Assembly (NCBI GenBank): GCA_026399895.1
Contig: JAPLQC010000022.1
Location: forward strand, 7,132 to 71,131
Length of the DNA: 64,000 nt
Direction of reading: 5' to 3'
Source: Burkholderiales bacterium
Lineage (GTDB): Bacteria; Pseudomonadota; Gammaproteobacteria; Burkholderiales; Burkholderiaceae_D
Below, piece after piece: positions 39,281 through 40,948 of the stretch. Position 1 is the first letter of the stretch, and each line of letters opens with the position of its first letter. A program made the position numbers and the translations under genes. Below the pieces are notes generated by a model. That model was given only the letters and a program-made list of their open reading frames with translations, did no database searches and was not told where the DNA came from.

Positions 39281-39312
39281 AAACAGAGCCGTTCTTCCGA
39301 ACGGCTCTCTGT
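39281..39312. terminator. Shared hairpin terminator between convergent waaA and the F-box/LRR gene
   Basis: AGAGCCGTT (39285-39293) pairs with AACGGCTCT (39300-39308). A T-run follows on the minus strand (GTTTTTGG). Confidence 0.65.
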
Positions 39313-39343
39313 GCTTACCTAAGCATATTGACATTAACCCTCA

Positions 39344-40816
39344 TCAGTCGACCGGTAGAACGTCATCGAAGTCATTATCATCGCTATCTGGGTCGTTCTC
39401 CTGAATACTCCTTTCATGCAATTTTGTGATCGGGTGATTGCGTAATTTCTTCGTAACTTCCGAATATATGCTCACCTGAGGCGTGGAGTAGTATTCCTGC
39501 TGCAGTTCGTCGTATTCTCGTTTCAATGCATTCCAGTCGATGTCGATGTTATCAGCCAGTATTCCGTTGGCTGGAATTGAATAAATACTGCTTGTTGAAG
39601 AGCTGAAGTACGAAAGTTCGGCGGTATGTTGCTGCAGCGATTTCTTAAGCATCTCTATATGAGTGTCGGAAGCATTGTGCTGATCGATATCAATAGTTTG
39701 TACCAGATGTGGGTGTTTCAGAGAATCGCAGATCGATTGAACGCATACATCATTGAATCCGGTATTCTTCAACCGCAGATGATAGAGCGGTCGAATTTTT
39801 CCAAAAAGAAGATTGTAGAATTCTTTTATTTCTTGCGGGTTATCCGAAAAATCTGGGTTGTCGCTAAGGTTAATGCGATAGAAATTATTCTTCTTATCTA
39901 TCAGTTTGAGCAATTCAGTCGCATTCCCTGCGGACAGCGCGTTTGATGACAGGTCAAGTATAAGAATATTGCTATCAGATGAGTTAGCCAGGGCTGGGAA
40001 AATCGTAGTCTGCAATGCTTCCATGCCGATAGCCGAGGCATTAATTTTTATGAACGAACCACTCGTCTTGCCAAGAACCTTGATCTGGAAATCCCAGTGC
40101 TTGCCATTCGAGAAATCAAAGCAGAAAGAATTCAATTTATAGATATCAGCTTCCGCGTTCGGCGTTGTTTTCTGCTGATTGGCCAGATGGAGTATAAATT
40201 GAGAGCTAATTCTAAAATCTTCCTCGCTACAGTTTTCTCGAATAGATTGAATATTATCTGACCACGTGTGCATTGTTTTGTACGTGCGGCCATTGCTATC
40301 GCGGTGAATAAATGAAAGAGCAGTCTCGTACATCGTTTTTGATGTCTTTGCCACATTACTTAAACTGGTGTTAAAAAGTCTTGGTTGTTGTAGCTGAATG
40401 AAGATATTGCATAGTGCCTCGGGTGGCAGGGATTCAAGAAATGATTCTTGTGCCACCGTTGAAGTTGTTTGCCGCTGCATCAGCGTTATATCCGACGAGG
40501 TGGTTTGTGAACTGATCGAAGAAGATGAAGAACTGCTCGCTACGGTAGTTGGCACGTGGGAATGCCATTCATTCAGCCACGCTGGTTGTTGTTCTAATTG
40601 ATTGGTCGTCATCAGCGGTGGCGTCGATGTCGGAGGGTGCTCTGACTCAGATTCTTTCTTTGTATCAGTAGCAACGGTAGTGGTGGCAGCTGCGGTAGTA
40701 GCAACACTAGCAGTAGGTATTGTTGTTGAGAAAATCGGTACGGAGCTAGGCGGATTGGCGCTGACGGGTGGCGTACTCATAAAGATTTTTCCGGAATGGG
40801 GTAAGTTAATAAGCAT
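39344..40816 (-). CDS. Eukaryote-like F-box + leucine-rich-repeat protein (candidate secreted effector)
   Basis: 490 aa in an AT-rich gene. It has a Ser/Thr/Pro-rich N-terminus, an F-box-like LESLPPEALCNIFIQLQQPRLFNTSLSNVAKTSKTMY, RI-type LRRs at aa 283-400, and an acidic C-terminus. M13 (40780) is an alternative start. Confidence 0.8.
   Translation of the reverse strand: MLINLPHSGKIFMSTPPVSANPPSSVPIFSTTIPTASVATTAAATTTVATDTKKESESEHPPTSTPPLMTTNQLEQQPAWLNEWHSHVPTTVASSSSSSSISSQTTSSDITLMQRQTTSTVAQESFLESLPPEALCNIFIQLQQPRLFNTSLSNVAKTSKTMYETALSFIHRDSNGRTYKTMHTWSDNIQSIRENCSEEDFRISSQFILHLANQQKTTPNAEADIYKLNSFCFDFSNGKHWDFQIKVLGKTSGSFIKINASAIGMEALQTTIFPALANSSDSNILILDLSSNALSAGNATELLKLIDKKNNFYRINLSDNPDFSDNPQEIKEFYNLLFGKIRPLYHLRLKNTGFNDVCVQSICDSLKHPHLVQTIDIDQHNASDTHIEMLKKSLQQHTAELSYFSSSTSSIYSIPANGILADNIDIDWNALKREYDELQQEYYSTPQVSIYSEVTKKLRNHPITKLHERSIQENDPDSDDNDFDDVLPVD
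39617..39970 (-). other. Four RNase-inhibitor-type leucine-rich repeats (aa 283-400)
   Basis: ILILDLSSNALSAGNATELLKLI / RINLSDNPDFSDNPQEIKEFYNLL / HLRLKNTGFNDVCVQSICDSLK / TIDIDQHNASDTHIEMLKKSL, with 28-32 aa periodicity. Confidence 0.6.
40313..40438 (-). other. F-box-like motif (aa 127-168)
   Basis: LPPEALCNIFIQL....L......V.K fits the LPxE(I/L)LxxIFxxL...L......VcKxW consensus, except that the Trp is replaced. Confidence 0.6.
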
Positions 40817-40913
40817 GGTTTGCGCCTTTAAATGACACGCGAAGCTTCAGGAACCATCTTTGAGCTCAGGTTCAATGATTGATTGCAATGCGGTTGCTAT
40901 ATCCGAATCGGAA

Positions 40914-40948
40914 TAAAAAAAGGCCGGTCATATGACCGGCCTTTTTTA
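40914..40948. terminator. Bidirectional rho-independent terminator downstream of the OMF gene
   Basis: AAAAAAAAGGCCGGTCA-ta-TGACCGGCCTTTTTTAT: a perfect 10-bp stem with flanking A and T runs. Confidence 0.85.

Follow-up and report, generated by a model that had tools for sequence, protein, structure and literature searches.

A putative F-box/leucine-rich-repeat protein encoded at the variable waaA/efflux junction of a freshwater Burkholderiales bacterium

The gene and its surroundings

The stretch of 64,000 nucleotides analyzed here (referred to as the window) belongs to a Burkholderiales bacterium (assembly GCA_026399895.1, contig JAPLQC010000022.1, positions 7,132 to 71,131) and carries, between the waaA gene and an efflux operon of the resistance-nodulation-division (RND) type, a minus-strand gene whose product very probably combines an F-box with leucine-rich repeats (LRRs). 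An earlier note, based on reading the letters of this DNA, had described a 490-codon open reading frame (ORF) wedged between these two neighbors, and its coordinates were found to be as claimed: the mechanically defined ORF covers positions 39344..40816 (-), and the numbering of the residues used below follows this 490-codon frame. The coding sequence proper is taken to be 39344..40780 (-), i.e., 478 residues and a stop codon. The start was placed at the conserved M13 (ATG at 40780-40778, the protein opening with MSTPPVS...) because the homologues begin at the same residue and because the orthologous ORF of locus L001 lacks any in-frame start farther upstream. The 12-codon upstream extension MLINLPHSGKIF (40778-40816, minus strand) is not conserved; it is present in the database entries P0001 and P0003, where it is probably due to a start-codon mis-call.

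On one side, the gene is bordered by waaA (37998..39272, plus strand), encoding a Kdo transferase, and on the other side by the outer-membrane factor (OMF) gene (40967..42361, minus strand) of an operon which also encodes the membrane fusion protein (MFP) and the RND pump and spans positions 40967-46801 (-). The Pfam families found on syntenic loci (Glycos_transf_N in the case of waaA and OEP in that of the OMF gene) agree with these assignments. Both of the bounding hairpins previously proposed were found, and both proved to be strong upon folding. The intrinsic terminator of the F-box/LRR gene (39275..39308, minus strand) has a 10-bp stem, in which 6 of the pairs are G-C, and a loop of 4 nt, followed by a U-tract located on the minus strand, the hairpin at 39285-39308 having a folding energy of -19 kcal/mol (z -4.1) according to the terminator scan and the folding. 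The hairpin at about 40915..40947, which terminates the efflux operon and looks bidirectional, since U-runs are present on both sides, has an energy of -23 to -28 kcal/mol (z -7 to -8). The presence of hairpins on both sides indicates that the F-box/LRR gene forms a transcription unit of its own (monocistronic). Its 5' untranslated and promoter region would occupy positions 40781..40914 (-), between the start codon at M13 and the upstream hairpin; the promoter scan yielded no sigma-70 consensus sites in the 39100-41100 interval.

The difference in base composition between this islet and its flanks, which had been estimated by hand from a few lines of sequence, was confirmed when the GC content was computed in 300-nt windows: it amounts to 41-50% within the islet and 51-60% outside. 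Among the approximately 52 ORFs of the window, which has an overall GC content of 55.6%, the F-box/LRR ORF is the sole outlier, with 43.8% GC and a third-position GC content (GC3) of 0.46, while the remaining ORFs range between 51 and 60% GC and between 0.52 and 0.72 in terms of GC3, save for one 152-aa ORF. The latter, located at 11897-12355 (-), has a GC3 of 0.42, which is unusually low for this genome, and no Pfam match; it may be a small orphan gene, unless the ORF is spurious. The GC dip recurs at the orthologous gene of locus L001, and AT-richness is maintained throughout the clade.

The other ORFs scanned in the window are housekeeping genes, together with a chemosensory cluster of the Pil-Chp type IV pilus system (17856-26130, plus strand), in which a PilJ-type methyl-accepting chemotaxis protein (19243-21489) is followed, at 21496-26130, by a 1544-aa ChpA-like hybrid kinase carrying Hpt, HATPase, CheW, and receiver domains. 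At 51.1%, the GC content of a 715-aa orphan ORF at 54308-56455 (+), which matches no Pfam family, is the second lowest in the window. In its product, the disordered N-terminus is rich in S/T/P and contains STP/TSTPS repeats, the C-terminal tail is acidic, and basic patches are present; judging from this compositional style, which is like that of the F-box/LRR protein, the ORF may encode another effector-like protein.

The protein family and its domain architecture

The 35 close homologues of the protein all come from metagenomes or metagenome-assembled genomes (MAGs). In a scan of the contigs of the GTDB species representatives, only two carriers of the gene were identified, both freshwater betaproteobacterial MAGs, so that none of the carriers found is a cultured organism. 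Proteins encoded near the gene in the window fall into clusters with MAG proteins labeled Oxalobacteraceae or Burkholderiaceae bacterium. An exhaustive profile search over 1.84 billion representatives yielded 122 matches, about 25 of which are proteins 400-500 aa in length which can be aligned from the LPxE motif through the LRRs with 19-28% identity; these are called the superfamily below. No name other than "hypothetical protein" was found for any member in the homologue listings and the cluster look-ups, the window protein had no match in NCBIfam, and a word-indexed search with the superfamily alignment returned mostly the same family again and no named proteins.

The F-box/LRR architecture proposed in the earlier note was borne out by the Pfam scores of the homologues, a three-helix model and the near-full-length alignments obtained with Skp2 and FBXL17, and is regarded here as very probable. 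The LRR part is solid. A solenoid of the ribonuclease inhibitor (RI) type was predicted at aa 230-415 (39572..40129, minus strand) with AlphaFold2 (AF2), with a predicted local distance difference test (pLDDT) score of 82-97, the scores in the whole region of alternating beta-strands and alpha-helices from aa 230 to 475 ranging from 70 to 97. Seven beta-strands were distinguished at aa 230-412, spaced 25-36 and mostly 28-29 residues apart, which gives 6-7 repeats; the four RI-type LRRs formerly placed at aa 283-400 were therefore of the right type but too few, since the AF2 solenoid is longer. The structural matches obtained with Foldseek include the LRR domain of NLRP1 (template modeling score 0.62-0.67, relative to the target), RI, NOD2, CARMIL, and RanGAP. 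Searches of the PDB sequences with phmmer and with the family profile also led to LRRs of the RI/NLR type (NLRP1 by profile: E = 1.5e-4), and LRR_6, the RI-type Pfam model, matches 20 of the 25 superfamily members. The characteristics of RI-type LRRs, namely tandem strand/helix repeats about 28-29 residues long with an LxxLxLxxNxL core, are all present.

The F-box-like domain (aa 127-172, LESLPPEALCNIFIQLQQPRLFNTSLSNVAKTSKTM...; 40301..40438, minus strand), the motif LESLPPEALCNIF... of which begins at aa 127, was identified on the basis of Pfam, homologue, AF2, and hhalign data. The only Pfam family matching the window protein is F-box-like, at aa 127-166, with 16.9 bits (17.4 in the case of the core construct) and E = 0.004-0.006. 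In a calibration, genuine F-boxes were found to match that of Skp2 (the sequence used being an exact match to 1FQV) at just 13-25 bits, so that a score of 17 bits falls inside the normal range. F-box-like ranks first among the Pfam families matched by 13 of 15 close homologues and by 11 of the 25 superfamily members, the latter sharing only 20-30% identity. The homologue P0112, which matches the family profile with E = 3.9e-21 from profile position 4 onward and in register, exceeds the curated cut-offs of F-box-like (25.7 bits vs. 24.3), F-box (22.6 vs. 20.5), and LRR_6 (23.8 vs. 23.4). In the array of paralogues at locus L006, F-box-like matches all eight proteins at the aligned position, while the PF00646 cut-off is reached by two of them and that of LRR_6 by four. 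Homologues with a threshold-passing F-box at the aligned position thus exist both in P0112 and among the L006 paralogues, and a subgroup of the superfamily has kept the canonical F-box sequence TC(K/R)xW. In the hhalign alignments, the LPxE..IF..L motif is in register with that of Skp2.

Structure prediction points in the same direction. The AF2 model based on the 25-sequence superfamily alignment (mean pLDDT 79.5, predicted template modeling score 0.69) shows three predicted helices in the F-box region, at residues 13-22, 32-37, and 41-53 of the core, with pLDDT values of 73-90. This model replaced an earlier one, computed from the shallower alignment of the family with the disordered N-terminus left in, in which the pLDDT of the F-box region was less than 50. 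Using Foldseek, Skp2 (from the Skp1-Skp2 complex) was aligned with the model over 311-360 columns and FBXL17 over 337-359; the LRR domain of RipG4, a GALA effector of Ralstonia, was also returned, and the best match in the viral structure library BFVD was a giant-virus "F-box domain-containing protein", aligned in full length over 435 columns. In the comparison with the distant clade, the F-box is the most conserved module (72% identity), followed by the LRRs (59%), the linker and the C-terminus (42-44%), and the N-terminus (34%), as would be expected if the F-box contacted a highly conserved partner such as Skp1.

Several observations weigh against the presence of an F-box. The window protein taken by itself scores below the F-box-like cut-off of 24.3 bits, and the Pfam scan gave no match with PF00646 and none with any LRR family, so that the search recommended in the earlier note returned a sub-threshold F-box-like match and nothing on the side of the repeats. 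Profiles restricted to the F-box region, whether derived from the family or the superfamily, did not retrieve a single F-box protein from the PDB sequences, even with a limit as permissive as E <= 10, and with hhalign the probability of the alignment with the F-box of Skp2, obtained in the expected register, reaches only 22% when the family profile is used and 52% in the case of the superfamily profile. The alignments between the model and Skp2 or FBXL17 have high root mean square deviations (14-17 A) and E-values of about 1e-3 to 1e-2, and in the window clade a methionine (M162) occupies the position of the canonical tryptophan. The F-box formerly assigned to aa 127-168 therefore stands as regards the position of the motif, the family-level evidence and the three-helix model, but not as regards the score of the window protein itself.

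The two termini and the linker are less conserved. The N-terminal region (aa 13-126; 40439..40780, minus strand), where the pLDDT is below 50, is predicted to be disordered and is polar. S, T, and P account for 50% of residues 21-126, and K, R, D, and E are all absent from the first 38 residues after M13, which agrees with the Ser/Thr/Pro-rich N-terminus almost free of acidic residues described previously. Short conserved motifs emerge here from the family and superfamily alignments: MSTPPVS, PP(V/L)M (which also occurs as a PRM variant), and WLNEW in the window family, and (D/N)P(S/T)NSS(A/M)Q ... P(R/P)(M/V)M in the superfamily and the L006 proteins, some paralogues having M(D/E)KEWxx(F/I)(I/M)xL(R/K)NR. 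No Sec-type signal was detected in this region, the basic n-region being absent and the maximum hydrophobicity being 1.08; judging from its composition, this disordered, charge-poor stretch is a candidate secretion or translocation signal region. The linker joining the F-box to the LRRs (aa 173-229; 40130..40300, minus strand) is helical in the AF2 model (core residues 55-106, pLDDT 77-90), and its conserved alignment columns include W185 and a ...LR..F..S motif. The C-terminal part (39347..39571, minus strand) comprises a region of predicted helices (aa 428-473) and the tail ...ENDPDSDDNDFDDVLPVD, the acidity of which was also noted correctly at first: D and E make up 45% of the last 20 residues, from which K and R are absent. 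The residues D479, F483, L487, P488, and D490 are conserved, the protein ending in the LP(V/T)D sequence of the family motif DDxxFDxxLP(V/T)D, while the motif F(D/E)xxAxAEKL is near-universal among the distant relatives. The ...AEKL ending is presumably a poor fit to the PTS1 and KDEL-type consensus sequences. Like the charge-poor N-terminus, the acidic C-terminus is a candidate export signal, or both may be short linear motifs. The conserved motifs at the two ends may serve in export, in the binding of a chaperone, or in sorting within the host.

The waaA/efflux junction and the evolution of the gene

The F-box/LRR gene occupies the same slot in loci L001, L003, and L004 as in the window. The survey of this junction covered 80 metagenomic waaA loci, in which four states were distinguished. 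The junction is empty, with a gap of 29-183 bp, in 14 loci with a waaA product 55-74% identical to that of the window. About seven loci, including that of a close relative (L017, waaA 77%), carry a toxin-antitoxin pair consisting of a Phd/YefM-like antitoxin and a PIN toxin, with or without a GNAT gene. A single F-box/LRR gene is present in the closest loci, L015 and L016 (waaA 80-81%), and an array of eight copies in L006, of which L005 contains a fragment. The existence of these four states indicates that the junction between waaA and the OMF gene, which form its two boundaries, is an accessory-gene hotspot, and this hotspot is undergoing gain, loss, and tandem duplication. The idea of an accessory islet is therefore consistent with the empty junctions of the relatives, but the expression "single-gene islet" used in the earlier note, although correct in the window, describes only one state of a variable locus.

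Locus L006 is more distant from the window (RND 83%, PMM 80%, waaA 63% identity). Its eight tandem paralogues, which span positions 5234-17254 in the slot between the OMF gene and waaA, have a GC content of about 50%, as compared with 57-60% in the flanks. A DUF3237 gene (9375-9812; 145 aa, E = 3.7e-31) lies inside this array, which ends with a GNAT gene adjoining waaA. In loci L017, L019, L021, L024, L027, L035, and L043, the antitoxin is 89 aa in length, the PIN toxin 143 aa, and the GNAT protein about 199 aa, the assignments in these seven loci being based on the appearance of the sequences and the sizes of the ORFs. The other superfamily members are encoded by single genes in unrelated housekeeping contexts: next to TspO/HAD, next to CinA/pyrF, and beside an MSHA-type pilus cluster. 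In the latter case (P0110; L010 11343-21281, GCA_040399905.1), the neighboring cluster is divergently oriented and resembles both an MSHA-type pilus and a type II secretion system (T2SSF, an MshEN-T2SSE ATPase, a secretin, and pseudopilin-like genes). It is the only export-related neighborhood seen in the case of any family member, and its proximity to P0110 is probably coincidental.

The window protein shows about 51% identity with that of L001, as compared with 80-98% in the case of the flanking proteins. In the comparison with L003, the rate of synonymous substitution (dS) was 0.32 (0.17-0.27 in the flanks) and that of nonsynonymous substitution (dN) was 0.077 (0.004-0.035 in the flanks), with a dN/dS ratio of 0.24. 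Overall, the dN of the F-box/LRR gene is 2-20 times higher than that of its neighbors, and its dN/dS ratio ranges from 0.13 to 0.24. The flank-like dS, the raised dN, and the dN/dS ratio of 0.24 show that the gene is real, under purifying selection and vertically co-inherited within the clade, and that the protein is fast-evolving. The hypothesis that it might be a pseudogene was rejected on the basis of these ratios. Recent horizontal transfer was likewise rejected in view of the flank-like dS and the clade-wide synteny; the persistence of the AT-richness across a clade this old also argues against it. The foreign origin suggested at first by the base composition thus cannot be that of a recent insertion, since the gene has been inherited along with its flanks in a clade where the copies have diverged to about 50% identity. 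The composition may rather go back to an old acquisition, the AT-richness of which was maintained by xenogeneic silencing or because codon selection is weak. Nor is the gene a syntenic and compositionally typical one among its relatives, the situation held in the earlier note to speak against its proposal: synteny is restricted to the closest clade, in which the gene is also AT-rich.

Possible function and comparison with known F-box/LRR proteins

The reading which we favor, to which we assign a probability of roughly 0.55, is that the protein, with its disordered N-terminus, F-box, linker, LRR solenoid, and acidic tail encoded in an accessory hotspot, is an exported mimic of the substrate receptors of the eukaryotic SCF (Skp1-Cul1-Rbx1) ubiquitin ligase. 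The bacterium would deliver it to a eukaryotic cell, probably that of a protist grazer or host, where the F-box would dock onto the highly conserved Skp1 adaptor. The protein would thus become a substrate receptor of the host SCF ligase, and the surface of the RI-type LRRs would select the host proteins to be ubiquitinated. Export and its route, Skp1 binding, ubiquitin-ligase activity, and the identity of the eukaryotic partner are all inferred. The constraint on the F-box, the high dN, the eight-copy array, and the variability of the junction suggest an effector-like mode of evolution, and the protein probably serves to manipulate a eukaryote, be it a host or a grazer. On the other hand, no genes of type III, type IV, or type VI secretion systems (T3SS, T4SS, and T6SS) were seen among the window ORFs scanned or beside any family member, which agrees with what was first noted about the window, and we know of no eukaryotic host for this lineage, which resembles free-living bacterioplankton (it has a photolyase and a pilus chemosensory system and is abundant in lake metagenomes).

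Alternatively, the protein may simply be an LRR binder which recruits no SCF ligase and the N-terminal helices of which serve as a cap or scaffold and resemble an F-box only through degeneration or convergence; its target might be either eukaryotic or bacterial. LRR-only effectors such as LegL7 of Legionella and YopM of Yersinia provide comparable examples. The sub-threshold score of the window protein, the failure of the F-box-only profiles to match anything in the PDB, the methionine at the position of the canonical tryptophan, and the fact that the strongest structural matches are LRR-only proteins (NLRP1, RI, and CARMIL, with LegL7 also among the Foldseek matches) are all compatible with a mere binder. 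A simple cap would not, however, be expected to be the most conserved region of the protein; in addition, some homologues exceed the curated F-box cut-offs at the aligned position, F-box-like gives the leading Pfam match even in members showing only 20-30% identity, the model has three helices, and the alignments with Skp2 and FBXL17 extend through the N-terminal domain. A binder devoid of SCF recruitment is therefore a serious but rather unlikely alternative.

It is less likely still that the protein stays inside the bacterium and takes part in regulation, in envelope or efflux functions, or in anti-phage sensing, the LRRs acting as a sensor and the location between lipopolysaccharide and efflux genes being meaningful. 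This idea is in line with the conserved position beside waaA and the efflux operon in the closest clade, with the toxin-antitoxin modules hosted by the same junction in relatives, which are typical of defence and accessory islands, and with the lack of secretion systems among the window ORFs scanned. The terminators, however, insulate the gene from both neighbors, the junction is empty in many relatives, and other family members occur in unrelated contexts, which means that the linkage with waaA and the efflux operon is positional rather than functional; on these three grounds a functional link was ruled out. A defence system was also ruled out, the window protein, P0112, and P0109 having no match in PADLOC-DB at E <= 0.01; nor did the window protein match any NCBIfam family, and we know of no partner for an F-box in bacteria. 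Lastly, the low GC content and the lack of any database annotation for every member might suggest that the gene is what remains of eukaryotic or viral DNA acquired horizontally, now decaying or without function, but the reading frame is intact in at least 35 homologues, dN/dS is 0.13-0.24, many columns are invariant across the family, the fold is confidently predicted, and the gene has its own terminator, all of which make such a remnant highly improbable.

The closest organizational analogue of the protein is the NEX1a family of the chlamydiae, the expansion of which in the Parachlamydiaceae (Neochlamydia) was described by Domman et al. (2014) and amounts to 138 copies over two genomes (PMC4209131). 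These proteins consist of an F-box, a conserved linker about 50 aa in length, and LRRs, are encoded in tandem arrays undergoing birth-and-death evolution, and carry functional type III signals (PMC4209131). The F-box-linker-LRR order, the tandem arrays, the variation of the copy number among close relatives, the purifying selection combined overall with fast divergence, and the annotation of all members as hypothetical proteins are common to both families, this likeness being organizational and functional. The NEX1a carriers, however, are obligate intracellular symbionts of amoebae equipped with a T3SS, and their signals have been shown experimentally, whereas the present carrier is an apparently free-living freshwater betaproteobacterium, the family of which has 1-8 copies at one hotspot as compared with 138.

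The closest taxonomic analogue is the GALA/RipG family of Ralstonia solanacearum, a multigene family of Burkholderiales proteins in which an F-box is likewise followed by LRRs, and the RipG4 member of which figures among the structural matches mentioned above. For GALA/RipG proteins, binding to Skp1-like proteins of plants and a role as SCF substrate receptors have been either demonstrated or suggested. Their LRRs are 24-residue repeats of the cysteine-containing (CC) type (PMC2244805), whereas those of the window protein are RI-type repeats of 28-34 residues, so that it lacks the repeat type by which the GALA family is defined. The N- and C-terminal regions also differ, none of the homology searches made gave any sequence relationship with GALA/RipG, and the GALA proteins are secreted through the T3SS of a plant pathogen.

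The F-box effectors AnkB/LegAU13, LegU1, and LicA of Legionella pneumophila also mimic SCF receptors in an aquatic bacterium associated with protists, and have a non-canonical F-box which is difficult to detect. They are encoded by dispersed single genes of atypical composition, and the acidic C-terminus of the window protein is reminiscent of Dot/Icm signals. Their F-boxes, however, are joined with ankyrin repeats or other domains instead of RI-type LRRs, sequence homology is absent, and no dot/icm genes, which encode the type IVB system delivering the Legionella proteins, were seen in the window or in the contexts of the family. The eukaryotic FBXL proteins (Skp2, FBXL17, and TIR1/COI1) show the same colinear arrangement of F-box, linker, and LRR solenoid, but their LRRs are CC-type repeats of about 26 residues, as against RI-type repeats here; the window protein differs from them in its long linker (about 57 aa), the replacement of the canonical tryptophan by methionine in its clade, its bacterial origin, and its long disordered N-terminus. 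The F-box and LRR proteins of giant viruses (Sylvanvirus, Homavirus, and Klosneuvirinae), which gave the best BFVD matches, first the F-box domain protein mentioned above and then RI-like LRR proteins, also form multigene families aimed at protist hosts, but they are viral proteins with 10-16% identity, and signs of direct descent are absent.

This unannotated protein thus joins the bacterial F-box/LRR mimics of SCF receptors already known, among which it is unusual because of its RI-type repeats and its carrier, a lake bacterium that looks free-living. To our knowledge, bacterial F-box proteins have been tied so far to pathogens and obligate symbionts (Ralstonia, Legionella, Agrobacterium, and the Parachlamydiaceae). 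The F-box of the present family is invisible at single-sequence Pfam thresholds and emerges only when family-level evidence is used. If the protein does recruit Skp1, it would reveal a hidden interaction between bacteria and protists in a globally distributed freshwater lineage, provide a natural series of zero, one, and eight copies in which the birth and death of effectors might be followed, and add a new LRR scaffold to the SCF mimics. A broader and much more tentative idea is that an abundant and apparently free-living lineage of planktonic freshwater Burkholderiales, which is not known to include pathogens or symbionts, may keep a hotspot of rapidly diversifying SCF-mimicking F-box/RI-LRR proteins for use against the ubiquitin system of protist grazers or hosts, perhaps delivered by means other than a T3SS or a T4SS. 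If this were the case, ubiquitin-ligase mimicry would extend beyond intracellular pathogens and be part of the ordinary predator-prey ecology of pelagic waters.

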